Notes: a model not told the origin generated them from the sequence alone. Numbered from the stretch's first letter, positions 4,100-43,296 are shown. The stretch: 46,841 nt of DNA from Nitrosomonadales bacterium (GCA_043777275.1 JAYVQD010000516.1:1-46841), one strand, 5' to 3'. A program made the numbers and translations.

Positions 4100-5080
4100 A
4101 TGAAACCATCAGAATTGAACGATTCCGACAATGCGGCGAGCGAGTGGCATCGCAAACGCGCGACGGCGCGTGCGATCGTGACGGATGCTGCCACCTGCCA
4201 GCCGGAACGCGTTCTGCGCGCCGCGACGTGGCTGATATGCGTGTTGCTGTCCGGTTTGATGCTAACCGCGGCATGGCTGTTGATTTTGCGGTACGACTGG
4301 CACGGAGCGCTGGACATCGTTGGTGCAACGCTTTCCAGCAGCGTGTTCTGGACCGCCTTGGCGGTGGGGCTGTTCGCGCAGATCGTCGATGGCGCGCTGG
4401 GCATGGCGTATGGCGTCACCGCTTCTACGTTTTTGATGGCGACCGGTGCGAGTCCCGCAGCTGCGAGTGCTAGTGTGCATATCGCGGAAATATTTACGAC
4501 CGGTGTTTCGGGTATTTCTCATGTCCGAATCGGCAACGTGGACAAACGATTGTTCGTGCGGCTGGTGGCGCCCGGCGTTGCAGGCGCGATACTGGGCGCC
4601 GTGGTGGTGACGCAGATTGATGGCGCAATGCTCAAGCCCTATGTTTCCACGTATCTGTTGCTGTTGGGTATTTACATTGTTTATAAAGCAATTCGGCAGG
4701 CCAAGCGGCGTACGCGAGCGCCCGCCCATGTGGGCAAACTGGCGCTAACGGGTGGATTTCTCGATACGGTTGGCGGCGGCGGCTGGGGTCCGGTGGTGAC
4801 GTCAACGCTGATCGGCGCCGGCAATGATCCGCGCAAGACCATCGGTACCGTGAGTTTGGCGGAATTCTTCGTCGCGCTGGCCGGCGCGGCATCTTTTTTG
4901 TTATTGATGGAGACGAACACCTGGATGATTATCGCGGGACTGGTAATGGGCGGTGCGATTGCCGCGCCGTTTGCCGCGCTCGTTTGTGCGAAGCTGCCGG
5001 CGCGCCTGCTGATGCTGCTGGTGGGCGTGCTGATCGGGGTACTCAGTATGTTTAACCTGTATCGGGCGATTTACATATAA
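4100..5080 (+). CDS. TauE/SafE (TSUP, DUF81) family anion permease
   Basis: Multi-TM protein with DGALGMAYGV...HIAEIFTTGVSG and a second half GGFLDTVGGGGWGPV, typical of the TSUP internal repeat. Start is uncertain (GTG 4085 or ATG 4100). The TAA stop at 5078-5080 is the first 3 nt of a 17-mer repeat copy. Confidence 0.8.
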   Translation: MKPSELNDSDNAASEWHRKRATARAIVTDAATCQPERVLRAATWLICVLLSGLMLTAAWLLILRYDWHGALDIVGATLSSSVFWTALAVGLFAQIVDGALGMAYGVTASTFLMATGASPAAASASVHIAEIFTTGVSGISHVRIGNVDKRLFVRLVAPGVAGAILGAVVVTQIDGAMLKPYVSTYLLLLGIYIVYKAIRQAKRRTRAPAHVGKLALTGGFLDTVGGGGWGPVVTSTLIGAGNDPRKTIGTVSLAEFFVALAGAASFLLLMETNTWMIIAGLVMGGAIAAPFAALVCAKLPARLLMLLVGVLIGVLSMFNLYRAIYI

Positions 5081-5094
5081 GTATTTGTTTTTAA
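5078..5094 (+). repeat. AT-rich 17-mer TAAGTATTTGTTTTTAA, copy 1 (perfect)
   Basis: Exact 17/17 match. Its TAA is the stop codon of the TauE-like gene. It is followed by about 30 more AT-rich nt. Confidence 0.9.
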
Positions 5095-5211
5095 ATAAAA
5101 ATTTGTAATATAGCATTATCCGTTTGGTGCGACGGCGGCGTTACGCGCAGCGTGCGGTGCGGCAATGCGAAGTAGAATTCCGTCGATCCCCAACTGCACG
5201 GATGCATTGCC

Positions 5212-5931
5212 ATGACACCCGATCTAACCGACATCAAGGCGCTCACCTTCGACGTATTCGGCACCTGCGTCGATTTTCGCGCCAGCATCATCAAGGATTG
5301 CCGCACGTGGGGCAAAGCGCGCGGCTTACGCGTGAACTGGCCGAAGTTTGCCGACGCATGGCGCGCCGGTTATCGCCCTGCGATGGATCGCGTGACACGC
5401 GGCGAATTGCCGTGGACCAAAATCGACGCGCTGCATCGCTTGATCCTCGATGACCTGCTGGTGAAATTCAAGATCAACGATCTGACCGAAGCCGAGAAAG
5501 TTCATCTGAATCGCGTATGGCATCGCTTAAAGCCGTGGCCGGATACCGTCAAAGGGTTGAAGCGGCTGAAGAAAAATCACACTATCGCCACGCTCTCCAA
5601 CGGCAACACCTCGCTGCTGGTGAACATGGCGAAGTTCGGCGGCCTGCCGTGGGACTGCGTGTTTTCAGCAGAGACGTTTCATCACTACAAGCCCGATGCC
5701 GAAGCGTATTTGGGCGCAGTGGCGGCACTCGATCTCAAGCCCGAACAGGTGATGATGGTTGCGGCGCACAAGCACGATCTTTTCGCTGCGCAGATGGTTG
5801 GTTTGAAAACCGCCTTCGTGCGCAGCCCGCATGAGCATGGCCGCAACACCAACAAAGACCTGGCTGACGAGCCGTCGTTTACGATTAACGCCGACGACAT
5901 GGTTGATCTGGCGGCGAAGCTCGGTTGCTAA
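5212..5931 (+). CDS. HAD-superfamily hydrolase, haloacid dehalogenase type II-like
   Basis: N-terminal DVFGT nucleophile motif, TLSNGN and a C-terminal HKHDL region typical of type II haloacid dehalogenases. Confidence 0.7.
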   Translation: MTPDLTDIKALTFDVFGTCVDFRASIIKDCRTWGKARGLRVNWPKFADAWRAGYRPAMDRVTRGELPWTKIDALHRLILDDLLVKFKINDLTEAEKVHLNRVWHRLKPWPDTVKGLKRLKKNHTIATLSNGNTSLLVNMAKFGGLPWDCVFSAETFHHYKPDAEAYLGAVAALDLKPEQVMMVAAHKHDLFAAQMVGLKTAFVRSPHEHGRNTNKDLADEPSFTINADDMVDLAAKLGC

Positions 5932-5945
5932 TTCAGGAGAAACAC

Positions 5946-6551
5946 ATGCCCGCCAAAACCCAACGGCCGACGCAGGAAGAAATGAAAACGCGCATCGCGC
6001 GCTTCAAAGACTTGAAATCCACCAAGGCGCAGCACGGCGCGAACAAAGGCATCCCGCCCGAAGTGCTGGAGCTGATTACCGCCAAGACCACCTACAACAT
6101 CATGTCGCCGCCGGGCCTCGGCGGGCAGCTCGCGCCCACGCCGCCGGTGGTGGGTGGTGATGCGGGCGTGTTTCGTTTAGGGATAGTGACCTGCCCGCCG
6201 GGCAATGGCGCGGGACTGCATGTGCATTGGAAGACGCACGAAACCTTCATGGCGCTCACCGGCAAGTGGGAAATGATCTGGGGCGACAAGGGCGAAGAAA
6301 AAACCGTGCTGGAGCCGTTTGACCTGATGGCCGTGCCGCCGCGGGTGACGCGTACCTTCAAAAATATCTCGGATGCCGACGCGCATATGCTGGTGATTAT
6401 TCAAGGCCAGCCCGGCGAGTTCGACGACGTGGGCCGCGTGCCGGAGACTGCCGAAAAAGTCGCGCAGAAATTCGGCCCGGAGATGGTGGAAAAATTAAAA
6501 ACCCTCGGCTGGCAGTTCACGCTGGATGCGAACGCGCCGCCGGATGCGTAA
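5946..6551 (+). CDS. Cupin-domain protein
   Basis: G-x-H-x-H-like core GNGAGLHVHWKTHETF plus a second beta-barrel motif. The ATG at 5946 is preceded by AGGAGA and is preferred over the track start at 5925. Confidence 0.6.
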   Translation: MPAKTQRPTQEEMKTRIARFKDLKSTKAQHGANKGIPPEVLELITAKTTYNIMSPPGLGGQLAPTPPVVGGDAGVFRLGIVTCPPGNGAGLHVHWKTHETFMALTGKWEMIWGDKGEEKTVLEPFDLMAVPPRVTRTFKNISDADAHMLVIIQGQPGEFDDVGRVPETAEKVAQKFGPEMVEKLKTLGWQFTLDANAPPDA

Positions 6552-7644
6552 CACCTCCACCGTCGTTCCCGCGCAGGCGGGAACCCATAACACAGTGTCG
6601 CTTGAGGCGCCGCATGGGTTCCCACCGCAGCCTGCCCTCGAATGCTTTAGTCGGGGGCGCGAACGACCGTATTGGTGCGGTTGCGCTTTCCTGTTTGTAA
6701 CGCTGGCAACGGGATCACTCAGCGCGCAACCCTACCCCACGCGCCCCATCCGCCTCATCGTTCCCTTCCCGGCCGGCGGCACCGCCGACGTGCTCGCGCG
6801 CAGCATCACCAACGAAACCGGCGCGCAACTGGGGCAGCCGTTTGTGATCGACAATCGCGGCGGCGCCAACGGCATCATCGGCATCGACATCGTGGCGAAA
6901 GCGCCGCCCGACGGCCACACGCTGCTGCATGTGACGGCGGCCTTCGTCATCAATCCGCATGTCTACCTCAAGCTGCCGTATGACGTGTTTCGCGACTTCG
7001 AGCCGGTGACCAACGCAGTGCTCGGCACCGGCTATCTGGTGTTGCTGCATCCGGCGGTGGCGGCGAACACGGTAAAGGAGTTGATCGCGCTGGCGAATGA
7101 TCCAAAAATGAGCGGCAAGCTGAGTTACAGCTCGCCCGGCGTCGGCAACACGCTGCATCTGGCGGCGGAGTTGTTCGCCACGCGCACGGGTATAAAACTC
7201 CTGCACGTGCCGTACAAGGGGGTTGCGCCGGCGCTGAATGCCGTGCTTGCGGGTGAAGTGCAAATGACGCTGATACCGCCGACCATCGCGGTGCCGCAGA
7301 TCAAGGCGGGGCGCGCCAAAGCGATTGCGTTTACCGGATCAACGCGTTTTCCAGGCTTGCCGCAACTGCCGACGATGACCGAAGCGGGCATCCAGAATCT
7401 CGAACTCACCGGCGCATGGCACGGCTGGTTCGCGCCGGCGAGAACACCGGCGAACGTGCTTGCGCGCCTGCACCAGGAAGTGGCAAAGTCGTTGCAGATG
7501 CCGCGCGTGCGCGAGGTCATCGTCACCGGCGGTTACGAGCCGGACGGACGCCCGCCTGCGGAATTTCGCGCGTTTCTGCGGCTCGAATACGAGCGTTATG
7601 CCGAGATGGTGCGGGTGGCCAACGTGCCCAAGACAACACATTAA
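6544..7644 (+). CDS. Bug-family (TctC-like) tripartite tricarboxylate transporter substrate-binding protein; N-terminus uncertain
   Basis: The mature part, QPYPTRPIRLIVPFPAGGTADVLAR...YSSPGVGNTLHLA...HVPYKG, is classic Bug/TctC. The only in-frame canonical starts (6526, 6544) lie upstream of a REP-like hairpin that would then be translated. Confidence 0.8.
   Translation: MRNTSTVVPAQAGTHNTVSLEAPHGFPPQPALECFSRGRERPYWCGCAFLFVTLATGSLSAQPYPTRPIRLIVPFPAGGTADVLARSITNETGAQLGQPFVIDNRGGANGIIGIDIVAKAPPDGHTLLHVTAAFVINPHVYLKLPYDVFRDFEPVTNAVLGTGYLVLLHPAVAANTVKELIALANDPKMSGKLSYSSPGVGNTLHLAAELFATRTGIKLLHVPYKGVAPALNAVLAGEVQMTLIPPTIAVPQIKAGRAKAIAFTGSTRFPGLPQLPTMTEAGIQNLELTGAWHGWFAPARTPANVLARLHQEVAKSLQMPRVREVIVTGGYEPDGRPPAEFRAFLRLEYERYAEMVRVANVPKTTH
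6565..6623. repeat. GC-rich REP-like nested palindromes
   Basis: GTTCCCGC (6565-6572), loop GCAG, then GCGGGAAC (6577-6584) form a perfect 8-bp stem. GGGAACCCAT (6579-6588) pairs with ATGGGTTCCC (6614-6623). The translation VPAQAGTH is typical of a widespread proteobacterial intergenic repeat. Confidence 0.55.
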
Positions 7645-7647
7645 AAT

Positions 7648-8097
7648 ATGATTAAAAACAAATACTTACATAAAGAACGCACAGGGTTGATTCTGTTCGC
7701 CCACGGCTCGCGCAATCCGGCGTGGCGCAAGCCGTTCGACCGCGTGCTGAAAGATGTGATGAAACGCGGCGAGTGCCAGGCGATTCTGGCGTTCGGCGAA
7801 TTCATGTCGCCGGGCATGGTCGAGGCCGCGCAAATGCTGGCGGCGCAAGGCGTGAAAAAGGCGGTGATCGTGCCGTTGTTTCTGGGCGGCGGCGCGCATG
7901 TGCGCGGCGACGTGCCGAAACTCGCCGCGCAGGCGCGCGCGGCGAGTGGTATGCAATTGCGTGTGGCAAAAACCATCGGCGAAGACGCCGCGGTGTTGAA
8001 CGCGATTGCGGATTACAGCATTGCCGCCGCACGCCCTCCGCGTGCTACACGTGCTACGCCGGCTGCGACTATTTCAGCGCGCCGAAAACCTTCTTGA
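7648..8097 (+). CDS. CbiX/SirB-type (small) sirohydrochlorin chelatase
   Basis: LILFAHGSRNPAWRKPF...VIVPLFLGGGAHVRGDVP matches the CbiX(S) pattern. The first codons (MIKNKYLHKE) are encoded by the 17-mer repeat; an alternative TTG start at 7687 is possible. The 3' end overlaps the convergent gene by 29 nt. Confidence 0.7.
   Translation: MIKNKYLHKERTGLILFAHGSRNPAWRKPFDRVLKDVMKRGECQAILAFGEFMSPGMVEAAQMLAAQGVKKAVIVPLFLGGGAHVRGDVPKLAAQARAASGMQLRVAKTIGEDAAVLNAIADYSIAAARPPRATRATPAATISARRKPS
7652..7668 (-). repeat. AT-rich 17-mer, copy 2 (perfect, reverse orientation)
   Basis: TTAAAAACAAATACTTA on the + strand. Lies 8 nt after the Bug stop, inside codons 2-7 of the CbiX-like ORF. Confidence 0.9.
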
Positions 8098-8803: not shown

Positions 8804-9307
8804 GTGAAAAAAGTAGTTTATCCTATGCTCGTAGTCGCCGCGGCGGCAATAGGGCTGTTGCTGTATAACGCGACATTTAACAAATCGATTACACCGCAGG
8901 TGACGTTTGTTTCGATCAAGGGCGAGCGCATCACGGTGGCTGATTTGCGCGGCAAGGTGGCGCTGGTCAATTTTTGGGCCACCGATTGCGCGATCTGCAT
9001 CAAAGAAATGCCGCAACTGGTTAAAACGCATCAGAAATACCAGTCACGCAGATTTGAAACCATCGCCGTGGCGATGCGCCACGATCCGCCGAACTACGTG
9101 CTCGCGTACGCCGAGAAAAACGCGCTGCCGTTCAAGGTGGTGCTGGATCCGATGGGTGAAATCGCCAAAGCATTTGGCGACGTGAAGCTCACGCCGACGA
9201 CGTTTATTATCGATAAGCGCGGCAACGTGGTGAAAAAAATTGTCGGCGAGCCGGATTTCAAAAAACTGCACGAACTGCTGGAGAAGAAGCTGGCGGAACC
9301 GTCTTGA
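8804..9307 (+). CDS. TlpA/redoxin-family thiol:disulfide oxidoreductase (membrane-anchored)
   Basis: N-terminal TM segment. Thioredoxin-fold motif NFWATDCAIC (CxxC) and TPTTFIIDKRG. The GTG at 8804 is preceded by GAGGA. Confidence 0.75.
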   Translation: MKKVVYPMLVVAAAAIGLLLYNATFNKSITPQVTFVSIKGERITVADLRGKVALVNFWATDCAICIKEMPQLVKTHQKYQSRRFETIAVAMRHDPPNYVLAYAEKNALPFKVVLDPMGEIAKAFGDVKLTPTTFIIDKRGNVVKKIVGEPDFKKLHELLEKKLAEPS

Positions 9308-9590
9308 ATCGATGTAGCGGTCGTGGCTTGATGTGGCTGGGAATTGTTGGTTCCGACCCTGAAGAGACATTCACTGTGACTACCATCGGCGTCTGGTATT
9401 CGGCCAAAGCGGACGACAAGATTCGTTGATATAGGCGATGGCCTATGTCCGCTTCCACATCCCAAACAGCTACTATCGACCCATCTCGGAAACGGCCAAT
9501 AGCCACTATTGCGGTATTCAAGCTCTTAACCGCTTTCTTGGCGCAATACGCGTGTTGCGCAGAATAAGCTCAAAAGGGGAGGGGTGAACG

Positions 9591-9947: not shown

Positions 9948-10014
9948 CCATTGACCTGATAATTTGGCATCCGACAAAACTGCTAACCGTCATGTGGAAT
10001 TTGATCTCTTATAG

Positions 10015-11133: not shown

Positions 11134-11247
11134 AGATATCAGTGAGCCTTTTCTTTATGCTCTAAGACGTTACACCCGTCAGGACACTGGGGCAAACTCG
11201 CGAATCCGCAGTTAACGTTTCCATCTACCCTTAGATAGGCGTGCGTT

Positions 11248-13133: not shown

Positions 13134-13985
13134 ATGAAACCTCCCAAACGCCTGCAATCCCTGATCGAAGAAGGTCTGATCGACACGGTGGTGCTGCAAC
13201 TGATGAGCGGCAAAGAGGCTGCGGTTTACGTGGTGCGCTGTGGCGACGACACGCTGTGCGCCAAGGTCTACAAAGAGGCGACGCACCGCAGCTTTCGCCA
13301 GGCGGTTGATTACACCGAGAACCGCAAAACCAAAAACAGCCGCCAGGCGCGCGCGATGGCCAAGGGCTCCAAGTATGGCCGCGAGTCGCAAGAGGCGGCG
13401 TGGCAAAGCGCCGAGGTGGATGCGCTGTATCGCCTGGCCGCCGCCGGGGTGCGCGTGCCCGCGCCGCATAATTTTCTGGATGGCGTGTTGCTGATGGAGC
13501 TGGTGACCGATGAAAACGGCGAAGCGGCGCCACGTCTGAATGATGTGATGTTCACGCCCGAGCAGGCACGCGCGCAGCATGCGATGCTGTTGTTGCAGGT
13601 GGTGCGCATGTTGTGTGCCGGTGTGGTGCATGGCGATTTATCGGAGTTCAACATTCTGCTGGGCGCGGAAGGCCCGGTGATTATTGATCTGCCGCAGGCG
13701 GTGGATGCCGCCGGTAACAACCATGCGCAGCGCATGCTGCTGCGCGATGTGGTGAATCTGCGCGATTTCTTTGGCCGCTTTGCGCCGGAGTTGCTGCACA
13801 CCGATTTTGGCCCGGAGATCTGGGATTTGTATCATCGCGGTGAACTCACTACCGAAACGGTGCTCACCGGCACGTTCGAGCGCGAGGCGGGTGAAGTGGA
13901 TATCAGCAGCGTGATACGCGAGATTGAAGATGCGCGTATGGAAGAAGCCGCGCGGTTGCTTCGGATGCAGACGGCGGAGCAATAA
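13134..13985 (+). CDS. RIO1-like atypical serine protein kinase (bacterial RIO)
   Basis: SGKEAAVY (ATP loop), catalytic HGDLSEFNIL, metal-binding IIDLPQAV. 283 aa. Confidence 0.8.
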   Translation: MKPPKRLQSLIEEGLIDTVVLQLMSGKEAAVYVVRCGDDTLCAKVYKEATHRSFRQAVDYTENRKTKNSRQARAMAKGSKYGRESQEAAWQSAEVDALYRLAAAGVRVPAPHNFLDGVLLMELVTDENGEAAPRLNDVMFTPEQARAQHAMLLLQVVRMLCAGVVHGDLSEFNILLGAEGPVIIDLPQAVDAAGNNHAQRMLLRDVVNLRDFFGRFAPELLHTDFGPEIWDLYHRGELTTETVLTGTFEREAGEVDISSVIREIEDARMEEAARLLRMQTAEQ

Positions 13986-13987
13986 TA

Positions 13988-14004
13988 TAAGTATATGTTT
14001 TTAA
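13988..14004 (+). repeat. AT-rich 17-mer, copy 3 (one substitution: TAAGTATATGTTTTTAA)
   Basis: Starts 3 nt after the RIO stop. 24 nt separate it from the next ATG (14029), with AAAGGGG in between. Confidence 0.85.
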
Positions 14005-14028
14005 ACAATATTATCTAAAGGGGTCAAC

Positions 14029-15971: not shown

Positions 15972-16826
15972 TTAAAGCGTTACAACACCCGCGCCTAATT
16001 CAATGACCTGCCCGCCGACATAGATACCACCACTGGTATCCACATCGAGCAGCAGCCGGGATGGGCGCGATATGACTTCGCCCTGACGGATGATGCGCTT
16101 CACGGGTAGCGGCGCTTTGCGTGCGACGTACCAGCCACCGAGATTGGCCGCTGCGCTGCCGGTGCCGTGATCCTCGGATAACGCGCCGTGCTTTAACAGA
16201 AAAAACCTTACGCACAATTCACCGCCACCGGCATCGGCCCACACATAAATCTTGGTTACGTCATCTGCAGCCTTCTCAGCGGCCATGCGCGCAGCGTCGG
16301 GCTTGCAGCGTCGCACGGCATCGGCACTTTTTAAGGGCACGACCAATTGTTCGTTACCGGTGTTCACCCACAACAACGTGTCTGAAATATCCGTGGCGTT
16401 GATGCCGAGTGTTTGCGCCAGCGACGCCAGCGTCTGCGCATAGGGGCGCGTTTGCGGCGCGTTGGCTTTGAGCGTCCACTGGTCGCCGCATGCGCTGACG
16501 GGGATTACACCCGCGCCGGTCTCAAGCGTTATTTGATCGCCTGCGCCGGTGAGCGCGCGCACCACGTGCGCGCTGCCCAACGTGGGATGCCCGGCAAAAG
16601 GCATTTCAAACGCGGTGGTGAAAATGCGTATGCGCGCGGTGGCTTGGTCCGACGGCAACACAAACACGGTTTCCGACAAATTCCATTGCAGCGCGAGCGA
16701 CTGCATGGTTGCGGTATCGAGTCCGCGTGCATCTTCAAACACGCAGAGCGGATTGCCGGTCAGTCGCGGCTGCGCCGACGAGGTGTCGGCGAAAACGTTG
16801 ACGATACGGTAGTTGTATTGAGGCAT
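15972..16826 (-). CDS. PhzF-family isomerase-like protein
   Basis: VNVFADTS...TGNPLCVFED...SETVFVL...EMPFAGHPTLGSAHV is the PhzF signature. Confidence 0.85.
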   Translation of the reverse strand: MPQYNYRIVNVFADTSSAQPRLTGNPLCVFEDARGLDTATMQSLALQWNLSETVFVLPSDQATARIRIFTTAFEMPFAGHPTLGSAHVVRALTGAGDQITLETGAGVIPVSACGDQWTLKANAPQTRPYAQTLASLAQTLGINATDISDTLLWVNTGNEQLVVPLKSADAVRRCKPDAARMAAEKAADDVTKIYVWADAGGGELCVRFFLLKHGALSEDHGTGSAAANLGGWYVARKAPLPVKRIIRQGEVISRPSRLLLDVDTSGGIYVGGQVIELGAGVVTL

Positions 16827-16840
16827 AGAAAATTATCCTT

Positions 16841-16856
16841 TTAAAACAAATAGTTA
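16841..16856 (-). repeat. AT-rich 17-mer, copy 4 (degenerate: one base shorter, one substitution)
   Basis: The minus strand reads TAACTATTTGTTTTAAAAGGATAATTTTCTATG, that is, motif, then AAGGA, then the phzF-like ATG. Confidence 0.7.
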
Positions 16857-16883
16857 TGACGCTCTTCGAGGGCGTGTGTTTGG

Positions 16884-17348: not shown

Positions 17349-18521
17349 TCAAACAATCTGCGTCGCCACCGCCAGCAGCATTTCATCGTTGCCGCGCGCC
17401 GCGATCATCGACAAGCCCAGCGGACAGCCGTTCACGGTGGCCAGCGGCAGGCTCACTTGCGGTAGCCGGCCGATGCCTGAAATGCACAGCATGCCCATCG
17501 CGCGCTCGCGGAACGCCGTGGTCTGATCGGGCGGACAGTTCTTGAGTGGCGCGATGTCGGGCACGGTGGGCAGCAGCAGAATCGCATTGTTGGCGAGCAG
17601 TTTGTCGAGGCGCATGGCGAGTTCTTCGCGGCGCGGAATCATGCGCCCGACTTCAGCGGCGTCACTCTTTGCCACGGCTTCAAAACGCTTGCCGATGGCC
17701 GGGCCGAATTTCGGTTTCACGCGCGTCACCCACTCGCGATGTTCGTTCCAGATTTCGGCGAATTGTAAAACGCGAAACACTTCGAACCATTCGTTCAAAC
17801 CTTCGGCGCTGACTGTCACGGGCTCGGGCGCACCCAGCACCTTGGCGACACGCGCCAGCGCGGGCTGCAACGCTTGCTGTGCATCAGGCATGGCGAGCGC
17901 AAACGCATCCTGCGCGAGCAGCACGCGCCCCGGCGACGCGGCCTTACCGCCGAGCAGCACTTCGCCAACGCGGGCGAGTAAATCCGCATCACGCGCGAAC
18001 CAGCCGCAGGTGTCAAAGCCCGGCGCGAGCGCACATACGCCCTCAAGCGATATGCGTCCGTGCGTCGGGCGTATGCCGTAGAGGCCGCAAAAACTCGCCG
18101 GCGCGCGCACCGAGCCGCCGGTGTCGCTGCCGATGGCGAAGTCAACGAGCTTGCCCGCCACCGCTGCCGCCGAGCCGCTGGATGAACCACCCGGCACGCG
18201 GTCGGGAGCGGCCACATTGATCGGCGTGCCGTAGTGCGCGTTTTCGCCGGTGAGGCTGAACGCCATTTCCTCGGTGTGGGTTTTGCCGGCGAGTGATGCG
18301 CCCGCATCGAGCAGTTTTTTTGCTACGACGGAATGCGCCGTCGCAGCATCATGCGTGCGCAACCAGTCGGGACAACCGAAGCCGGTTTTGTGTCCGGCGA
18401 CATCGAAAATATCTTTCAGGCCAAAGGTCAGTCCGGCGAGCCGGCCGCTGGGCGCACCTGTCAATTCAACATGGGTGTGGCGACAAAAGGCGCCGAGTGT
18501 GTCCCGATCTAATATACTCAC
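17349..18521 (-). CDS. Amidase-signature family amidase
   Basis: GGSSSGSAAAVA plus GSDTGGSVRAPA amidase signature. GTG start preceded by AAGGAG. Confidence 0.85.
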   Translation of the reverse strand: MSILDRDTLGAFCRHTHVELTGAPSGRLAGLTFGLKDIFDVAGHKTGFGCPDWLRTHDAATAHSVVAKKLLDAGASLAGKTHTEEMAFSLTGENAHYGTPINVAAPDRVPGGSSSGSAAAVAGKLVDFAIGSDTGGSVRAPASFCGLYGIRPTHGRISLEGVCALAPGFDTCGWFARDADLLARVGEVLLGGKAASPGRVLLAQDAFALAMPDAQQALQPALARVAKVLGAPEPVTVSAEGLNEWFEVFRVLQFAEIWNEHREWVTRVKPKFGPAIGKRFEAVAKSDAAEVGRMIPRREELAMRLDKLLANNAILLLPTVPDIAPLKNCPPDQTTAFRERAMGMLCISGIGRLPQVSLPLATVNGCPLGLSMIAARGNDEMLLAVATQIV

Positions 18522-18531
18522 AAAAACTCCT

Positions 18532-18548
18532 TTAAAAACAAATACTTA
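18532..18548 (-). repeat. AT-rich 17-mer, copy 5 (perfect)
   Basis: The minus strand reads TAAGTATTTGTTTTTAAAGGAGTTTTTGTG: motif, SD, then the amidase GTG. Lies 7 nt downstream of the cytochrome c stop. Confidence 0.9.
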
Positions 18549-18554
18549 CACTAT

Positions 18555-19445
18555 TTACTGTAACGGCGGCAATGTCCGCAGCCACGCCACCAGCGCGTTC
18601 AGGTCTTCGTCGGTGAGCCGCTTCAGGTACTGCGCGTAGGTCGCCATGTTGATCGCCAGCGGGCGACCATTGCGCGATACGCCGTCGGTCAGCGCGCGCT
18701 TGATTTCAGCATCGCTCCACGCGCCCAATCCTTTGGTGGGATGCGAGGTAATGTTCGCCGCCGTTGAAAGACCCGCCGGTGATTTGAACACACGCCCGCC
18801 CTTGCCTGCGCCGGTGCGGTCGTTCGGCACATCGTCGTGACCGCGATCGGCGTGGCACTGCATGCAGTGGCCGAGGTTCGCAAGATACATCCCGCGCCTC
18901 ACCGGATCGCGCAGATCGCTTTCGCTCATCGGTTTTTCCGCGCCCGGATAAGGATAAGTGATCTGTTCTGATTTGTAGAACGGTGGCGCAACCTTGGCGT
19001 TGACCGGCGCAACGCTGCGCACAGACGCCACCACCGCATCCAGATCGCGCGGCGTCAGCACTTTATACAAAGAGTACGGCATGATGAAAGCGAGCTTCAC
19101 GCCATGGGGCCGCACGCCATCGACCAACGCGTGCTTAATCTCGGCATCGCTCCATTTGCCGATGCCGATGCCGATGCCGGTGCCGGTATCCTGGGTGATG
19201 TTGGAGCCGCTTACCGTAAACGTCACCTCGTCAAAGCGCTGTACGCCGCCGGCGAACTGCTGCGCTATCACCGGATTGCCTGCCTTGTCTTTGGGCGTGT
19301 GGCAATGATTGCAGGTCATGATGCCGTTGACGAGATAGTCGCCGCGCGCGAGCAGCGCCTCGGCGCTGTCACCTGTTGGTAATTGCGCGCAGGAACCCAA
19401 CGCTACCACTGCTGGCAAAACGACTACACGTAGCAAATAATTCAC
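18555..19445 (-). CDS. Dihaem c-type cytochrome, probable lipoprotein
   Basis: Two CxxCH motifs (CNHCH, CMQCH). Signal peptide with the lipobox-like ALGSC. GTG start. Confidence 0.8.
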   Translation of the reverse strand: MNYLLRVVVLPAVVALGSCAQLPTGDSAEALLARGDYLVNGIMTCNHCHTPKDKAGNPVIAQQFAGGVQRFDEVTFTVSGSNITQDTGTGIGIGIGKWSDAEIKHALVDGVRPHGVKLAFIMPYSLYKVLTPRDLDAVVASVRSVAPVNAKVAPPFYKSEQITYPYPGAEKPMSESDLRDPVRRGMYLANLGHCMQCHADRGHDDVPNDRTGAGKGGRVFKSPAGLSTAANITSHPTKGLGAWSDAEIKRALTDGVSRNGRPLAINMATYAQYLKRLTDEDLNALVAWLRTLPPLQ

Positions 19446-26063: not shown

Positions 26064-26205
26064 AACCCCTCCCCGAATAAATGATGCAACAGTTGAACCT
26101 GCCACTGAACGTAAGCACGTGAAAACGTGAGCGTCCATAGGCTACATCAGCTTTCGTCGTGCGTCAGCATCAATCCTTACATCATGGCGTCATTAAAATT
26201 ATTGT

Positions 26206-26222
26206 TTAAAAACAAATACTTA
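26206..26222 (-). repeat. AT-rich 17-mer, copy 6 (perfect)
   Basis: Lies 6 nt downstream of the PhyH stop and 142 nt upstream of the P460-cupredoxin ATG. Confidence 0.9.
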
Positions 26223-26228
26223 TACTAA

Positions 26229-26999
26229 TCATTCAGAAAGCGGCAGATCCGCCAGCGCGGCCGAACGTGTGCCCGGCAGCGGACGATTGTCTGCCGCATG
26301 GTAGGTGTGAACCACCGACAGTTTGGTATCCGCGGTTTGGTTGTGACCGGCGGCGTGAAACAAGCGGCAGTGAAAGAACAGCACATCGCCGGCGTGCAGC
26401 TCGGCGGCGATTTGGGTGCGCAGCAACGCGCGATTCTCGTCGAGATCGGTACGCAGAAATTGCGCCGCGTCGAGTTGATCGGCACGGAACGCCATGTCAT
26501 GCGAACCGGGCAACAGCAACAGGCAGCCGTTTTTTTGGTGCTCCTCGCCGAGCGCGAGCCACACCGACACCAGTTCCGGTTTATCGAACGACCAGTAGCG
26601 GATGTCGCGATGCCAGTGCGTAACGCTGCTGTAGGCCGGGTCTTTGGTCATCACGCAATTGTGATGCGACTGCGACAACTCGACGCGCGGGCCCAGTATC
26701 TGCGCGAGCCGCGCCGCGATCAACGGCGAGCATGCCCATTGGCGAAACACCGCGTCGCGCGCTACCGCCTGCAGCAGGCGGCGCACCGTGCGACCGCCCG
26801 GCGCATCCGGCGACGCGGGCGCACCGGGATATTGCGTGTCGGTTTCATACTCCACGGGTAAGCGCGGCTCGGCCAGATGCCTCAGCGCGACTTCGCGCAT
26901 ACGCGCCACCGCAGCGGCAGGCGCCAGCCCACGCGCAATCGCGTAGCCGTCGCGCGTGAGTTGCGCGAGTTCAGGCGGGCTGAACCGTTGCGCAGTCAC
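26229..26999 (-). CDS. Phytanoyl-CoA dioxygenase (PhyH) family Fe(II)/2-oxoglutarate oxygenase
   Basis: HWHRD (HxD) and a distal FHAAGHN His. GTG start overlaps the CPBP stop (GTGA). Confidence 0.8.
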   Translation of the reverse strand: MTAQRFSPPELAQLTRDGYAIARGLAPAAAVARMREVALRHLAEPRLPVEYETDTQYPGAPASPDAPGGRTVRRLLQAVARDAVFRQWACSPLIAARLAQILGPRVELSQSHHNCVMTKDPAYSSVTHWHRDIRYWSFDKPELVSVWLALGEEHQKNGCLLLLPGSHDMAFRADQLDAAQFLRTDLDENRALLRTQIAAELHAGDVLFFHCRLFHAAGHNQTADTKLSVVHTYHAADNRPLPGTRSAALADLPLSE

Positions 27000-35934: not shown

Positions 35935-35936
35935 TT

Positions 35937-35997
35937 CGTAGGGTGCGCATCGCGCACGCGGAAACGGTGATGAACGGTGCGCGATGCGCACCCTACG
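35937..35997. repeat. Perfect 21-bp inverted repeat (REP-like palindrome, probable bidirectional terminator)
   Basis: CGTAGGGTGCGCATCGCGCAC (35937-35957), a 19-nt loop, then GTGCGCGATGCGCACCCTACG (35977-35997). Sits between two convergent genes. No U-tract. Confidence 0.6.
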
Positions 35998-36040
35998 AGT
36001 TTCGCGGTGCTGCAAGCGGGCAGGTGTAGCAAACCGCTTC

Positions 36041-37378: not shown

Positions 37379-37394
37379 CTCCGACCCCTTTGTC

Positions 37395-37410
37395 TAAGTA
37401 TTTGTTTTAA
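37395..37410 (+). repeat. AT-rich 17-mer, copy 7 (one T shorter: TAAGTATTTGTTTTAA)
   Basis: In the 63-nt spacer between the ccmI stop and the fahA start, antisense to both genes. Confidence 0.8.
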
Positions 37411-37441
37411 TGGATATTTATTTTAATTCTCGATGTCGCGT

Positions 37442-38668: not shown

Positions 38669-39132
38669 CGTTGATTCGGCTTGATAGTCGAGCTATTGGT
38701 TTGCAGCAATGCCGCCGCGCGTGCGCGCTCGTCATCGGTGAGCGCAGGTTCTGCGGCTATCGTGGTGCGGCGGCGCAGGCGCATAAACAACGCGACCAAC
38801 CCCGCCACCATCAACAACCCCGGCCCAAACCACAGCAGCCAGGTCGTCGCTTTCACCGGCGGACGATACAAAACGAAATCGCCGTAGCGTTCGGTCATGA
38901 AGGTGATGATGTCTTTTTCGCTGACGCCCTGTTTTAATTTTTCGCGCACCTGATTTTTTAAATCAACGGCGAGATCGGCACTGGAGTCCGCAATGGTCTG
39001 GTTCTGGCACACCAGGCAACGCAGTTCTTCGGAAACGCGCTGCACGCGCCGCTCCAGCGCGGCGTCTTCGGCTGCCATCGCGGGCACAGGGCTGAATATA
39101 AAAATAATTATTAAAAACAAATACTTAATCAT
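38665..39132 (-). CDS. ccmH: Cytochrome c-type biogenesis protein CcmH
   Basis: LRCLVCQNQTIADS (LRCxxC) motif and a C-terminal TM segment. The ATG at 39132 gives the signal peptide MIKYLFLIIIFIFSPVPAMA, whose first codons are a 17-mer copy. Confidence 0.85.
   Translation of the reverse strand: MIKYLFLIIIFIFSPVPAMAAEDAALERRVQRVSEELRCLVCQNQTIADSSADLAVDLKNQVREKLKQGVSEKDIITFMTERYGDFVLYRPPVKATTWLLWFGPGLLMVAGLVALFMRLRRRTTIAAEPALTDDERARAAALLQTNSSTIKPNQR
39111..39127 (-). repeat. AT-rich 17-mer, copy 8 (perfect), inside the ccmH signal-peptide coding region
   Basis: The minus strand reads ATGATTAAGTATTTGTTTTTAATAATT, which translates as MIKYLFLII. Confidence 0.9.
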
Positions 39133-39136
39133 CACA

Positions 39137-39667
39137 TTACGTACCAGAATTGAGCTTCGCAATCAACGGCACAATTTTGTCTTTTAATGCTGCGGGCGTC
39201 ACCGGGCCGATTTGTTTATAGCGAATCACGCCCCGTTTATCGATGACATAGGTTTCGGGCACGCCGTAGACGCCGTAGTCGATGCCGATGCGGCCCTGCA
39301 CGTCGTACGCCGACAGCACATACGGATCGCCAAAGCGTTGCAGCCACGCAATGCCGTCGGTGCGTTTGTCCTTGTAGTTAAGCCCGTAAATCGGCACCGT
39401 GCCGCTCTTGGCGAGATCAACCAGTAGCGGATGCTCATCGCGGCACGACGCGCACCAAGACGCCCACACGTTGAGCAGCCACACTTTGCCCGCCATGTCT
39501 TTTTGCGAAAAGATTTTGTCTGGCGCGTGCAATTGCGGCAATTCAAACGCGGGCGCGGGTTTGCCGATCAGCGGCGACGGCACTTCGCGCGGGTTCAGCG
39601 TGAGACCCACGCCGAGGAACACCACCAACACCATAAAAAGGCCCAGAGGCCATAGCCAGCGTTTCAT
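39137..39667 (-). CDS. ccmG: Thiol:disulfide interchange protein CcmG/DsbE
   Basis: WASWCASCRDEHP CxxC motif and GVYGVPETYVID. ATGA overlap with the ccmF stop. Confidence 0.9.
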   Translation of the reverse strand: MKRWLWPLGLFMVLVVFLGVGLTLNPREVPSPLIGKPAPAFELPQLHAPDKIFSQKDMAGKVWLLNVWASWCASCRDEHPLLVDLAKSGTVPIYGLNYKDKRTDGIAWLQRFGDPYVLSAYDVQGRIGIDYGVYGVPETYVIDKRGVIRYKQIGPVTPAALKDKIVPLIAKLNSGT

Positions 39668-41661
39668 CGTGATTGACCCGCCACCGTTGCACCGGCAGCA
39701 CCCGCCACCGGAATTATTTCATCGCGTCTGCGCGCCGCCAAACGGTAGCGTCGGTCGAGCACCGCCAGCAATCCGCCCAGCGCCATCAACACACACCCGC
39801 CCCAGATCCAATCGACAAACGGCTTCACCTGCACCCGCACCACCCACGCTTTGCCTTCCACCGCCTCGCCCAGCGAGACATACAAGTCGCGGGTGAAGCC
39901 GGTGTTGATCGCCGCTTCGGTCATGGGGTTTTTCTGCACGTTGTAGATGCGCTTTTCGGGATACATCATGCTGACCGCAGACGCGCCACGCGTGACGGTG
40001 AATGTGCCGCGCACGGCCACGTAGTTCGGGCCTTTCACGTCATTCAGTGCGTCGAAGCGAAACGTGTAGCCGCCCAGTTCAACGGATTCGCCTACCGACA
40101 GCTTCACGTCTTTCTCGGCCTCATAACTTTTCACCATCGTCACGCCCACCACGAACACCGCCATGCCTGTGTGCGCGAGCAGCATGCCGTAGTAGCTGCG
40201 CGATTGCGCGCGCCATTTGGCGATGCCTGTGCCGGGCGTTTGGTTCAAGCGCGATAATAAGGTGGTCACGCTGCTGGCCACAATCCAAACCGCAAGCAAC
40301 AAACCAAAACTCGCCAGAGGCGTCCATGTGCCCATGGTGAACGGCAGCAGCAATCCGCCCACAACCGCAACCGCAAACGCCCACTTCAGCCGCACGGCTA
40401 GTTCGGGCAAGCTCGCCTGTTTCCAGCGCGCCATCGGCCCCACGCCCATCAAAAATAACGCAGGCGCCATCAGCGGCGCAAACACGGTTTCAAAGTAAGG
40501 CGGGCCGACGGAAATTTTGCCCATGCCCAGCGCGTCGAGGAATAACGGATACAGCGTGCCGAGCAAAACCGAACCCGTCGCCACCAGCAGCAGCACGTTA
40601 TTGGTGAGCAAAAACGATTCGCGCGACACCACCTCGAAGCGCCCACCCAGGCCCACGCGATGCGCGCGCCACGCAAACAACGCCAGCGAGCCGCCGATTA
40701 CCACCACCAAAAAGGCAAGGATGAACACGCCGCGCTTGGGGTCGGTGGCAAACGAATGCACACTGGTCAGCACACCGGAGCGCACGAGGAAGGTGCCGAG
40801 CAGCGACAAGGCAAACGCGAATATCGCCAGCAGCACGGTCCAGCTTTTGAATGCGCCGCGTTTTTCAGTTACCGCCAGCGAATGAATCAGCGCGGTACCC
40901 ACCAGCCACGGCATGAACGAAGCGTTCTCCACCGGATCCCAGAACCACCAGCCGCCCCAGCCCAATTCGTAATACGCCCACCAACTGCCGAGCGCGATAC
41001 CCAACGTGAGAAACGCCCACGCCAACGTGGTCCATGGCCGCGACCAGCGCGCCCACGTCGCATCCAAGCGGCCCGACAACAGCGCGGCAATCGCAAACGC
41101 ATACGCCACCGAGAAGCCAACATAACCCATGTAGAGCATCGGCGGATGAATAATCATGCCGAAATCCTGCAACAAAGGATTCAGATCGCGCCCGTCCATC
41201 GCCGCCGGCAGCAGCCGGTCAAACGGGTTGGAGGTAAACAGCGTGAAGCTGAGGAATCCCACACTGACCAAGCCCAGCACGCCGAGCACACGCGCAACGA
41301 TGTCGTTGGGCAAGTGGCTGCTGAACACGCTGACCGCCGTGGTCCAGCTCGCGAGCATCAGCATCCACAACAGCAGCGAGCCTTCATGCCCGCCCCACAC
41401 CGCAGCAATGCGGTACTGCAACGGCAAGCCCGAGTTGGAATTGGAGGCGACGTAGAGCACGGAAAAATCGTTGATTACAAACGAATAGGTGAGGCAGCCA
41501 AACGCGATGGCAACAAACACCAACTGCCCCTGCGCCGCAGGCCGCGCGAGATTCATCCACGACTGCGTGCCGCGCGCCGCCCCCGCCAGCGGCAGCGTGC
41601 CTTGCGCCACCGCGAGAATAAGTGCCAACACCAAGGCGAATTGACCGAGTTCTGGAATCAT
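39664..41661 (-). CDS. ccmF: Cytochrome c haem lyase subunit CcmF
   Basis: WWD motif WGGWWFWDPVEN. 665 aa polytopic membrane protein. Confidence 0.93.
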   Translation of the reverse strand: MIPELGQFALVLALILAVAQGTLPLAGAARGTQSWMNLARPAAQGQLVFVAIAFGCLTYSFVINDFSVLYVASNSNSGLPLQYRIAAVWGGHEGSLLLWMLMLASWTTAVSVFSSHLPNDIVARVLGVLGLVSVGFLSFTLFTSNPFDRLLPAAMDGRDLNPLLQDFGMIIHPPMLYMGYVGFSVAYAFAIAALLSGRLDATWARWSRPWTTLAWAFLTLGIALGSWWAYYELGWGGWWFWDPVENASFMPWLVGTALIHSLAVTEKRGAFKSWTVLLAIFAFALSLLGTFLVRSGVLTSVHSFATDPKRGVFILAFLVVVIGGSLALFAWRAHRVGLGGRFEVVSRESFLLTNNVLLLVATGSVLLGTLYPLFLDALGMGKISVGPPYFETVFAPLMAPALFLMGVGPMARWKQASLPELAVRLKWAFAVAVVGGLLLPFTMGTWTPLASFGLLLAVWIVASSVTTLLSRLNQTPGTGIAKWRAQSRSYYGMLLAHTGMAVFVVGVTMVKSYEAEKDVKLSVGESVELGGYTFRFDALNDVKGPNYVAVRGTFTVTRGASAVSMMYPEKRIYNVQKNPMTEAAINTGFTRDLYVSLGEAVEGKAWVVRVQVKPFVDWIWGGCVLMALGGLLAVLDRRYRLAARRRDEIIPVAGAAGATVAGQSR

Positions 41662-41688
41662 ATGGGAGCGTCGCCTAGTAAATAAAGT

Positions 41689-41727
41689 CCCCTCGCCCCG
41701 CTTGCGGGGAGAGGGTTAGGGTGAGGA
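41689..41727. repeat. GC-rich REP-like hairpin (GGGGAGAGGGTTAGGGTGAGG type)
   Basis: CCCTCGCCCC (41690-41699), loop GCTTGC, then GGGGAGAGGG (41706-41715) form a 10-bp stem with one mismatch, followed by TTAGGGTGAGG. Lies in the 101-nt ccmE-ccmF spacer and resembles a widespread proteobacterial intergenic repeat. Confidence 0.5.
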
Positions 41728-41762
41728 GGAGCACGCGAACCGACGCAAACATGCGCTTGGTG

Positions 41763-42239
41763 CTACTTGCCTGTTTTAGAGGGTGAATTCACCACGGTAC
41801 CCACCGCTTTCTGATTGGTGGCCTGCGCTTTTTTCAGTGCTTCGGCAGCTTCGGGCGGCATATAATTTTCGTCGTGCTTGGCAAGCACGTCGCTGGCCAC
41901 GAACAGGCCGTTTTCGAGCCGCCCCTGCGTCACCACGCCCTTGCCTTCACGAAACAGATCCGGCAACACGCCCTTGAACGCCACCGGAATGCTCTTGGCG
42001 GTGTCCGTGACGACAAAATGCACGGTCACCCCATCGGGCTGGCGCTTGACGCTGCCTTTTTCAACCATGCCGCCGACGCGAAACGCGCGCCCCTGCGGCG
42101 CTTCGTTCGCCACCACCTGCGTGGGCGTGAAGAAAAACACCAGGTTGTCTTGAAACGCCTGCAACACCAGCGTGGCGGCAAGTGCCAAACCGGCGACACC
42201 CGCGACGATCAAGGCGATACGACGATGACGCGGCTTCAT
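41763..42239 (-). CDS. ccmE: Cytochrome c-type biogenesis haem chaperone CcmE
   Basis: N-terminal TM segment, FRVGGMV OB-fold, and haem-binding LAKHDENY (HxxxY). Confidence 0.9.
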
Positions 42240-42394
42240 GATTTTGTACTCCCGACTTTTTGCATGGCACGGCGGCGCATCGCCAAGGCCGCCAGCTCAA
42301 TGGCGATGCAAAGAAATGTCACCACATAGGAACCCCACACGTACAGCCCCTTGCCGCCCATCGCGAAAAACTCGCTCGCGCTACCCCAGTTCAT
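42236..42394 (-). CDS. ccmD: Haem exporter protein CcmD (52 aa, absent from the ORF track)
   Basis: Hand translation: [56 protein letters not shown] overlaps with both the ccmC stop and the ccmE start. Confidence 0.75.
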
Positions 42395-43161
42395 CGTTGG
42401 CTCCCAATATAATCAGTAACCCAATCACTGCGCCGCTCCCGTTCAAGAATAATGCAGCGCACGCGCCACAGCGCCGCCGCAATCGCATACGCCCAGCACG
42501 CGAACACCATCACCATCATGCCGGCGAACATGGTCTTTGCCATGGTGGGCGCGCTGCTCAGGCTGACCGATGCGCCCTGATGCAGCGTGTTCCACCATTT
42601 CACTGAAAAATAAATGATGGGAATGTTTATCACCCCCACCAGCGCCAGCACCGCGCCCGCTTTGTCCGCGCGGCGTGGATCATCGATCGCCGCTTGCAGC
42701 GCCATGAAACCGAAATACAAAAACAGCAGCAGCAACTCGGAGGTGAGCCGCGCATCCCACACCCACCACGTGCCCCACGTCGGCTTGCCCCACAGCGCGC
42801 CCGTCCACAACGCCACAAAGGTAAACATCGCGCCGGTGGGCGCGAGTGCCGTCGCCATCATGCCCGACAGTCGCGTGTTGAACGCGAGGCCGATGCCGGC
42901 CCAAAATGCCATCGCCAGATAGATCAGCATCGACATCCACGCCGCCGGCACGTGGATGAAAATAATGCGGTACGACTCACCCTGCTGCGCGTCGGGGGGC
43001 GCGACAAAAAATCCGATATACAAACCCGCTACGCACAGCACCGCGGCAATCGCGGCAAACCACGGTGCCAGCGCACTCGCCAGCGGAAAAAATGTCTGTG
43101 GCGAGGCGTACTTGAACCAGTTGATGCCGTGAGAGGTGGTTTGCGGTGTGGCGCTGGACAT
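42391..43161 (-). CDS. ccmC: Haem exporter/haem-handling protein CcmC
   Basis: WWD motif WGTWWVWDARLTSE. 256 aa, 6 TM segments. Confidence 0.92.
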   Translation of the reverse strand: MSSATPQTTSHGINWFKYASPQTFFPLASALAPWFAAIAAVLCVAGLYIGFFVAPPDAQQGESYRIIFIHVPAAWMSMLIYLAMAFWAGIGLAFNTRLSGMMATALAPTGAMFTFVALWTGALWGKPTWGTWWVWDARLTSELLLLFLYFGFMALQAAIDDPRRADKAGAVLALVGVINIPIIYFSVKWWNTLHQGASVSLSSAPTMAKTMFAGMMVMVFACWAYAIAAALWRVRCIILERERRSDWVTDYIGSQR

Positions 43162-43192
43162 GGCGCGATGTTGGAGTGTGGTTGGTGACTAA

Positions 43193-43225
43193 GGTTCGCT
43201 ACAGCGGTTCGTTACAGCAGTTCAG
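43193..43225. repeat. Tandem 13-mer (about 2.5 copies) in the ccmB-ccmC spacer
   Basis: GGTTCGCTACAGC (43193-43205), GGTTCGTTACAGC (43206-43218), then a partial AGTTCAG. Confidence 0.6.
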
Positions 43226-43279
43226 GGCGCACAGTTTAATACAATTCCGTCACTGCAAAAGCGCGCCGCGATTATATCG

Positions 43280-43296
43280 TAAGTATTTGTTTATTC
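43280..43296 (+). repeat. AT-rich 17-mer, copy 9 (partial: first 13 nt match)
   Basis: TAAGTATTTGTTTATTC. Overlaps the ccmB stop codon (43291-43293 on the minus strand). Confidence 0.6.

Follow-up and report, generated by a model that had tools for sequence, protein, structure and literature searches.

A short AT-rich, non-palindromic interspersed repeat with an IHF-like anatomy at gene boundaries of uncultured freshwater Burkholderiales

Introduction

In Escherichia coli, the RIP/RIB repeats carry a site for integration host factor (IHF) within bacterial interspersed mosaic elements (BIMEs), and the Correia elements of Neisseria are miniature inverted-repeat transposable elements (MITEs) with a central IHF site. 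Here we describe a 17-nt AT-rich word, TAAGTATTTGTTTTTAA, and the ~42-bp unit of which it forms the conserved part, found at nine places in a 46,841-nt stretch of DNA from a Nitrosomonadales bacterium (GCA_043777275.1, JAYVQD010000516.1:1-46841; this whole stretch is called the window below). Like RIP/RIB and the Correia elements, the unit is a dispersed intergenic repeat with an IHF-like site, lying at gene ends and within operons. However, the IHF site of RIP/RIB sits inside pairs of repetitive extragenic palindromic (REP) sequences, and Correia elements are ~100-150 bp long with terminal inverted repeats and a TA duplication, whereas here the IHF-like site is the whole unit, and palindromes, inverted repeats and duplications are absent.

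Other families of short repeats and words resemble the unit in part. REP sequences and REPINs are likewise short (~30-40 bp), abundant, intergenic and host-maintained, but their sequence is a GC-rich imperfect palindrome headed by GTAG, and RAYT transposases serve them, whereas the unit is AT-rich and asymmetric and forms no hairpin. Rickettsia palindromic elements (RPE), which are palindromic, 100-150 bp long and insert anywhere in genes, are also short interspersed repeats tolerated in frame in protein-coding genes, where they add peptide segments; the unit differs from them in being ~42 bp long and non-palindromic and, when coding, in lying almost always in the N-terminal signal-peptide region. 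The uptake signal sequences (USS) of the Pasteurellaceae and the DNA uptake sequences (DUS) of the Neisseriaceae are, like the unit, clade-wide, orientation-independent and non-palindromic; they likewise have AT-rich extensions and many copies that are perfect, stay conserved at orthologous sites and vary in subtype. Unlike them, the unit has a core of 17-18 nt, is AT-rich in a GC-rich genome, occurs at a density 5-30 times lower, is almost excluded from gene interiors and is gained in an insertion-like manner. We found no description of the word, or of a comparable stand-alone, non-palindromic, AT-rich repeat, in the literature searched. The unit lacks the defining features of MITEs, REPs, promoters and terminators and has some, though not all, features of IHF sites and of uptake sequences, and we file it as a short host-maintained interspersed repeat. 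The reading that we favour, while holding it to be somewhat short of probable, is that this non-palindromic interspersed repeat may itself be a full IHF-type bending site.

Results and discussion

Recurrence of the word in the window

A search of the window for TAAGTATTTGTTTTTAA on both strands, with up to three mismatches permitted, returned nine sites in 46.8 kb (Table 1), five of them perfect and the other four with one, two, two and three mismatches. The mean expectation from dinucleotide-preserving shuffles was 0.02, and nine was never reached. The two copies with two mismatches each (copies 4 and 7) are best read as having a T-run that is one base shorter. A profile built from 127 unit copies found the same nine sites in the window and no further ones, and in a repeat search the word headed the largest family of direct repeats there. 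These are exactly the sites listed in an earlier sequence-only reading of the window, whose view that such recurrence is beyond chance is upheld by the shuffles. It had also considered an assembly artefact, which is contradicted by the presence of the word in independent NCBI MAGs (metagenome-assembled genomes), JGI metagenomes and a Logan assembly; one window protein is identical on a Logan assembly contig of run SRR23617272. Because the GC content of the window is 50-63% per kb, the word forms a sharp AT-rich island. The window has one unit per 5.2 kb, and about one-fifth of its intergenic spacers contain one. The statement that every copy lies near a start or stop codon is true of all nine but proved too weak, since many of them touch or contain the codon.

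Structure of the unit

The extent of the unit was taken from an alignment of 71 GC-rich copies. It covers ~42 bp and consists of an AT-rich left flank (-9 to -1), TAAGTATTTGTTTTTAAA, then N-AA and then a T-run. Positions 1-18 (the word and A18) are invariant in this alignment, the variable position 19 (C in only 39% of copies) is followed by A20 and A21, and the T-run at 22-27 fades by +33, with background composition beyond the unit on either side. Two 3′ subtypes coexist, ...TTTTTAAACA... and ...TTTTTATTGA..., and their usage depends on the genome, the ...TAA form being prevalent in the window and the ...TAT form in the relatives L116 and L118-L120. When copies were found via one exact half, the other half was still strongly conserved; under this half-site anchoring, positions 1-3, 5, 6, 9, 10, 12-14, 16, 20 and 24-27 were conserved, and variation fell mostly at 4, 7, 8, 11, 15 and 17-19. 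The T-run is retained in 84% of the copies without a reverse-strand ATG, and its conservation is equal in copies that do not form gene starts.

The word is indeed not palindromic, the unit as a whole being asymmetric, and the impression gained from the nine window copies that inverted repeats, target-site duplications and hairpins are lacking was borne out on a larger sample. Among 125 copies, the two flanks of the same copy matched each other no better than flanks of different copies did, whether compared inverted for terminal inverted repeats (z 1.3-1.5) or directly for target-site duplications (z 0.9-1.3), and in RNA folding the units were no more stable than shuffles (z -1.0 to +2.3), for which reason a structured RNA or DNA was rejected. 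With none of these three features, the unit is indeed distinct from MITEs and REPs. The proposed alignment of flanks in search of a longer element gave a divided answer: the unit is longer than the word (~42 bp versus 17), but no shared flanks exist beyond it, where the sequence is not common to any copies and shows no sign of recent copying. No Rfam covariance model matched the window at the gathering score.

Distribution among genomes

A scan of species-representative genomes returned at least 114 loci with the word. Among the matches listed, ~70 loci have a GC content of 56-68% and belong to ~25 assemblies labelled Betaproteobacteria or Burkholderiales, some of them mislabelled Bordetella, and the remaining loci each have one match, lie in AT-rich genomes and are what chance would give. 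When metagenomes were scanned with the amidase encoded next to copy 5, 80 loci were obtained. The word family is present solely in those whose amino-acid identity is at least 84% and is absent from all of the ~70 amidase loci at 73% or below. With an nhmmer profile of the unit, 139 matches were obtained across 601 kb from the clade, whereas the other loci, the nearest outgroup (628 kb), gave none. Leaving out each locus's retrieving copy, genomes differ in density, with one unit per ~3-30 kb. The unit is thereby restricted to one clade of uncultured freshwater Burkholderiales, with at least ~25 species-level MAGs among the matches listed; the search of related genomes that the sequence-only reading had called for thus finds it spread over one clade and missing from outgroup loci. 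Its statement that the word fits no known repeat family also stands, with no match in Rfam, in the literature searched or in phage collections; neither strand of the word, nor its sub-words, nor the peptide MFKNKYL occurred in any relevant paper in the literature search. A phage origin was rejected, the matches in IMG/VR being single and chance-like, on contigs of 20-50% GC and without consensus flanks.

Outside the clade, the identical 17-mer is present as a single copy in Zoogloea oryzae and in a Zoogloea MAG (L017 3661-3677 and L097 7914-7930), in an orthologous AT-rich region upstream of the class II ribonucleotide reductase gene (nrdJ), and immediately upstream of a -35/-10-like pair.

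Conservation and turnover at orthologous sites

On the 5′ side of the amidase gene, the unit occurs in the window and in seven of the eight relatives, always facing the same way and with 10-13 nt between it and the start codon, and it is retained although at least four different genes lie upstream. In five distinct relatives the word is kept there at 17, 16, 15, 14 and 12 of 17 positions (L119 and L120 repeat the value of L118), and in L116 at 9/17, whereas the four-fold codon positions of the amidase gene are 57-63% identical in the four relatives that keep 17, 16, 15 and 14 of 17. Three independent syntenic pairs differed by 0 versus 1 mismatch. Another four pairs combined a perfect copy in one genome with a decayed one, of 4-5 mismatches, in the other; one of these four is the window and L116 at copy 6, where the word of L116 has decayed to 12/17. 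Because identity at orthologous sites far exceeds that of four-fold codon positions, the word is kept well above the neutral rate in many lineages; it is lost in others.

The units also show turnover that has the look of insertion. The spacer between the amidase and PhzF genes is 17 nt long in L122, with no unit, and 61 nt long in L118-L120, with a reversed unit, and in the window a forward unit is accompanied there by a further 0.5 kb. At one gene junction, the units of L081 and L091 have opposite orientations. All five gene-scale indels between relatives have a unit at one junction, but this is a lead only, because the loci were chosen for holding units. The 0.5-kb stretch of the window (16857-17348) is missing in relatives and contains an ORF (open reading frame) at 17055-17294 (+) without a Pfam match, which looks like the C-terminal remnant of a regulator. 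Between genes that are adjacent in the window (20816-20857), two relatives have an inserted gene for a membrane protein of 117-118 aa (L116 6525-6914, L117 2529-2898), the ATG of which is shared with the last bases of a reversed unit (...ACTTATG).

Translated copies

Copy 8 is not intergenic. The ccmH gene starts at ATG 39132, 4 nt past the ccmG stop, and the copy forms its codons 2-7; the unit encodes MIKYLFLIIIFIF of the canonical CcmH signal peptide MIKYLFLIIIFIFSPVPAMA/AEDA, which is coded almost wholly by the AT-rich unit (39073-39132, -). The two closest CcmH matches start MRKYLILLNFLFF... and MFLLIFLL..., fit the other subtype and the T8→A variant, and are taken to be clade relatives with unit-derived variants. 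The nearest named relatives of the window's CcmH are MAG proteins labelled Usitatibacter, Aquabacterium and Caldimonas, and the signal peptides of outgroup CcmH proteins are unrelated.

The reverse strand of the word reads TT-AAA-AAC-AAA-TAC-TTA, and in ~18 of 127 copies (~15%) an ATG, GTG or TTG, mostly 4 nt upstream of it, gives a protein start of the form M(F/I/N)KNKYL. The owners of such starts are TctC receptors, gamma-glutamyltranspeptidase, a ModA-like binding protein, dienelactone hydrolase, an MFP lipoprotein, the CbiX of the window (copy 2) and others; the nucleotide-identical start ATG TTT AAA AAC AAA TAC TTA (MFKNKYL) is found in unrelated secreted proteins (loci L002, L008, L030, L034, L041, L043, L060, L085, L110 and L118-L120). 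A further share of copies, 5% at most, may be in frame within genes. All translated copies retain the exact nucleotides even where a change would be synonymous, as in the codons AAC and TAC, which end in C; what is constrained is therefore the DNA word, and neither the peptide nor AT-richness as such. Being AT-rich and placed at gene edges, the unit is co-opted repeatedly: its TAA or TTA provides a stop codon, an AGGA placed after it a Shine-Dalgarno sequence, and its codons a signal-peptide start, either as ATG-TTT-AAA-AAC-AAA-TAC-TTA (MFKNKYL) or as AAG-TAT-TTG-TTT-TTA (KYLFL).

Descent from paralogous genes, through the conserved 5′ ends of TctC/Bug genes, was rejected as the sole cause of the recurrence, because most copies are non-coding and the translated ones span at least six unrelated families. 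Three TctC/Bug-family paralogues lie within the 47 kb (6544-7644, 14982-15929 and 24195-25157) and explain two other repeat families of the window. Such receptors are typical of Burkholderiales, and together with the nearest CcmH relatives they assign the window to an uncultured member of the Burkholderiales, broadly defined.

Genomic context and orientation

With gene boundaries from a simple gene caller based on GC content at third codon positions, the spacers holding units were co-directional, convergent and divergent in the ratio 51:11:9, compared with a baseline of 303:62:74. Units in co-directional spacers were sense in 31 cases and antisense in 20, and those within ~35-40 nt of a start codon were sense in 16 and antisense in 15, so that the suggested check of orientation relative to genes shows no bias. 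The median distance is ~8 nt to a stop codon and ~35-65 nt to a start codon, and in eight cases the word's own TAA is the stop codon. As to intergenic versus coding sequence, a check also suggested earlier, most units are in non-coding DNA, apart from the copies that encode N-termini or lie in frame within genes. The genes flanking the units are functionally unrelated. In the window, the complete ccmABCDEFGHI operon for cytochrome c maturation (37442-44603, -) holds copies 8 and 9 inside and copy 7 at its end, after ccmI.

Because the unit is orientation-independent, is spread proportionally over the spacer types and occurs also inside the ccm operon, its context argues for a DNA-level element, the placement of which is limited mainly by what the genome tolerates. 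It speaks against promoters, terminators and regulon operators, and against RNA functions tied to one strand. Two ideas of the sequence-only reading fall here. An AU-rich translational leader fails as a general explanation, the orientation to the adjacent start codon being ~50:50, and an ordinary regulon-type regulator site does not agree with unrelated flanking genes, undepleted convergent spacers and two copies inside the ccm operon.

Resemblance of the unit to an IHF site

An asymmetric conserved word of ~35-42 bp that works in either orientation, coding or non-coding, calls for a reader that acts in trans on the double strand. The IHF consensus WATCARnnnnTTR makes up one half of a footprint of >25 bp, and some strong IHF sites have an A-tract of 4-6 in the other half (bioRxiv 10.1101/382655). 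The H' site of lambda attP reads AAAAAA-GCATTGCT-TATCAA-TTTG-TTG (oligonucleotide S7, PMC1636419). The reverse strand of the unit reads AAAAAA-TTNTTTAA-AAACAA-ATAC-TTA, that is, A6-N8-core-N4-TTR, and the T-run at 22-27 thus corresponds, on this strand, to an A-tract that precedes the core by exactly 8 bp, as in H'. Both sites are asymmetric, ~35 bp long and built of a WATCAR-N4-TTR core (AAACAA-ATAC-TTA in the unit) and an A-tract of 4-6 separated by an 8-bp gap; like IHF sites, the unit is AT-rich and would be read largely via DNA shape.

Compared with the 13-bp IHF core WATCARNNNNTTR, the consensus copy of the unit matches at 8/9 specified positions and T11→A variants at 9/9. An 8/9 match is common in AT-rich DNA, being reached by 29% of composition-matched shuffles, whereas a core of at least 8/9 together with an A-tract in register occurs in 1.5% of them. 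Where T11 is A, a recurrent change, WATCAA is perfect, and the purine is retained when T8 is C. Within the IHF frame, half-site anchoring found positions 1-3, 9, 10, 12 and 13 conserved, and the frequently variable positions 4, 7, 15 and 17-19 are unspecified in it. The IHF resemblance raised in the sequence-only reading is accordingly strengthened: the 8/9 core, weak on its own, was confirmed, and it is now joined by a T-run in the A-tract register of H'.

The unit would then act as duplex DNA, to which an IHF-type nucleoid-associated protein docks with high affinity and which it bends, the putative binder being IHF or a close IHF/HU-family protein. Extra stretches of ~40 nt, orientation flips and replaced N-termini suggest that it enters spacers and gene ends by insertion; units may then survive at gene boundaries, where they do least harm, and be held there by selection on the DNA site.

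Several points weigh against this reading. Binding of the unit by IHF is a prediction from sequence comparison. The register test was post hoc, following a by-eye comparison with the consensuses of other proteins, so that the nominal 1.5% overstates the support. At its one core mismatch, the unit consensus carries A in place of the T that is usual in IHF sites (WATCAA). It also has conserved positions beyond those of IHF sites: 5, 6, 14 and 16 are strongly conserved although IHF leaves them unspecified, and because of this more than the known preference of IHF is maintained. IHF is universal in Proteobacteria, and therefore its binding alone leaves the restriction to one clade unexplained, as it does the spread of a 42-bp unit without inverted repeats, duplications or hairpins. 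Lastly, IHF sites are individually diverged, whereas the unit probably has hundreds of near-identical copies per genome; it is a tight family with many perfect copies and no graded series of weak sites, which is more typical of repeats and uptake sequences than of nucleoid-protein sites.

Alternative explanations

One rival is that the word is preferred by the DNA-uptake machinery of a naturally transformable clade and builds up and is held exact by biased uptake and homologous recombination (molecular drive), which we regard as unlikely but deserving serious weight. As with USS and DUS, one word is over-represented, in both orientations and with perfect copies prominent, and it is common to related species (~25 among the matches listed) and absent from the nearest outgroups. 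Neutral spread over the spacer types, orthologous copies that are either near-exact or decaying, and the exact word at synonymous sites within genes would all be expected; extended USS have AT-rich flanks beside a conserved core, as the unit does, and the variation of subtype frequencies by genome resembles the dialects of known uptake sequences. The known families have ~1 copy per kb with a large share inside genes, however, whereas the unit occurs once per 3-30 kb and at most 20% of its copies touch coding sequence. Drive acting on point mutations is unlikely to make a 40-nt AT-rich insert in GC-rich DNA, to flip the orientation at one site or to replace a signal peptide, the IHF-like register is not predicted by it, and we found no uptake specificity for Burkholderiales in the literature searched. 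That the word is a new DNA uptake-signal system, constituting a third known family and the first outside the Neisseriaceae and Pasteurellaceae, is unlikely too, and slightly more so. In another rival, the unit would be a selfish miniature mobile element, or its solo end or footprint, without host function and with incidental co-option, the asymmetric 17-mer being recognised in trans by a clade-specific transposase or recombinase. The amidase-PhzF spacer with the unit (L118) and without it (L122), the flip between L081 and L091, the different unit loads of species, the two subtypes, the five indels with a unit at one junction and the in-frame copies at gene ends, rarely within genes, are all in line with this. 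It is nevertheless a doubtful explanation. Terminal inverted repeats, target-site duplications (z about 1) and hairpins are lacking, ~42 bp is below any described MITE, the flanks do not point to recent copying, and no transposase was noticed beside copies, although no systematic search was made. Neutral junk, moreover, should neither retain 14-17 of 17 bases at orthologous sites against ~59% four-fold identity nor hold one consensus over those ~25 species.

The unit could also be a portable gene-boundary or translation-initiation module, an unstructured AU-rich stretch by the ribosome-binding site that aids initiation in GC-rich mRNAs from either strand. Seven sense copies end 9-15 nt ahead of a start codon, AGG or AGGA right after the word serves as a Shine-Dalgarno sequence in several (copies 4 and 5 in the window), ~15% of copies supply ATG and the first six codons, T8→A yields an in-frame ATG, and the RNA is unstructured. 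Yet units lie nearer to stops than to starts, 15% of copies are in convergent spacers, where there is no start codon, and AU-richness would not fix 17 exact bases, including two G/C positions and the codons AAC and TAC, all of which makes this module improbable. A promoter, UP element or intrinsic terminator is very improbable and contradicted by the data. The forward word does fit the UP-element consensus NNAAAWWTWTTTTNNNAAANNN at 12 of 14 specified positions by eye, and the Zoogloea 17-mers stand right upstream of a promoter-like pair before nrdJ; but a consensus scan found no sigma-70-like hexamer pair at canonical copies, the 71-copy alignment has nothing conserved at the place expected for a core promoter, and start codons are often only 10-25 nt past the word. 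The lack of orientation bias (31:20), the undepleted convergent spacers and the copies inside the ccm operon speak against it as well, the last also against a terminator, for which there is no GC-rich hairpin ahead of the T-run and no terminator-like site that coincides with any copy in 4-20 kb.

Some narrower resemblances were also set aside. An operator-like dyad, TTGTTT-NN-AAACAA, exists only in the ...AAACA subtype, and position 19 is C in only 39% of copies; a boxA-like TTTAAACAA hinges on that variable position. With E. coli TerB (TAAGTAT-GTTGTAACTAA), the word agrees at 14/17 with one gap, but it does not preserve the critical core GTTGTAAC, and replication would be blocked if such sites recurred every 5 kb in both orientations. 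By eye, the consensuses of Fis, Lrp, LysR (T-N11-A), FNR/CRP, NifA and sigma-54 did not fit.

Copies and neighbouring features in the window

Table 1. Positions of the nine units and their words in the window, with the state of each word and its surroundings
Copy	Unit	Word	Strand	State of word	Surroundings
1	5069..5110	5078-5094	+	perfect	TAA of the word is the stop codon of a TauE-family gene (4100-5080); start of a HAD hydrolase gene 117 nt downstream
2	7636..7677	7652-7668	-	perfect	7 nt past TctC stop (7644); + strand reads ATG ATT AAA AAC AAA TAC TTA (MIKNKYL); predicted codons 2-7 of the CbiX ORF if ATG 7648 is used (alternative TTG start downstream)
3	13979..14020	13988-14004	+	one mismatch, T8→A, giving ATG	2 nt past RIO-kinase stop; 24 nt ahead of zinc alcohol dehydrogenase start
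4	16824..16865	16840-16856	-	G4→C, T-run 1 base shorter	word followed by AGGA; PhzF-family start (16826) 13 nt downstream; other side adjoins the 0.5-kb stretch with a truncated gene fragment
5	18516..18557	18532-18548	-	perfect	fills the 33-nt spacer from cytochrome c stop (18555) to amidase GTG (18521); AAGGAG after the word
6	26190..26231	26206-26222	-	perfect	6 nt past PhyH-family stop
7	37386..37427	37395-37411	+	T-run 1 base shorter	antisense to both neighbours; fumarylacetoacetase start (37378) 16 nt off, ccmI/cycH stop (37442) 30 nt off
8	39095..39136	39111-39127	-	perfect	inside ccm operon, translated
9	43271..43312	43280-43296	+	decayed, 3 mismatches, first 13 nt of word match	antisense, between ccmB and ccmC; ccmB stop (43291) inside copy

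No unit lies between 7668 and 13988. The low-GC stretch at 9000-11200 (50-52%) may be acquired DNA; a 372-aa ORF at 10015-11133 (-) has no Pfam match. The cumulative GC skew peaks at ~15000-18000, where gene orientation changes from mostly + to mostly -, and a dif site near this switch was rejected, no match to the XerCD core being found with up to three mismatches. In a convergent spacer at 35933-36001 there is a GC-rich inverted doublet with 25-nt arms, 96% complementary, and a 19-nt loop, containing GTAGGGTGCGC; it resembles a REP/REPIN, occurs once in the window and shows no relation to the AT-rich word.

Implications

If the unit is an IHF-type bending site, a compact repeat would consist of a protein-docking site alone, present in about one-fifth of the spacers of the window and selected clade-wide, and this would pose the question of how a unit without palindrome, inverted repeat or duplication spreads. 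If it were instead an uptake signal, no AT-rich one would have been known before from a GC-rich genome; it would be exact across ~25 species among the matches listed, and the clade would be naturally transformable and exchange DNA preferentially within itself. The unit is an unusually clean case of repeat co-option, supplying stop codons, ribosome-site spacers and signal-peptide starts in either orientation. For binning these uncultured Burkholderiales and for tracking them, the word offers a sharp marker of the clade, and, as an uptake signal or a strong IHF site, it would also be a handle for genetic work on the clade.

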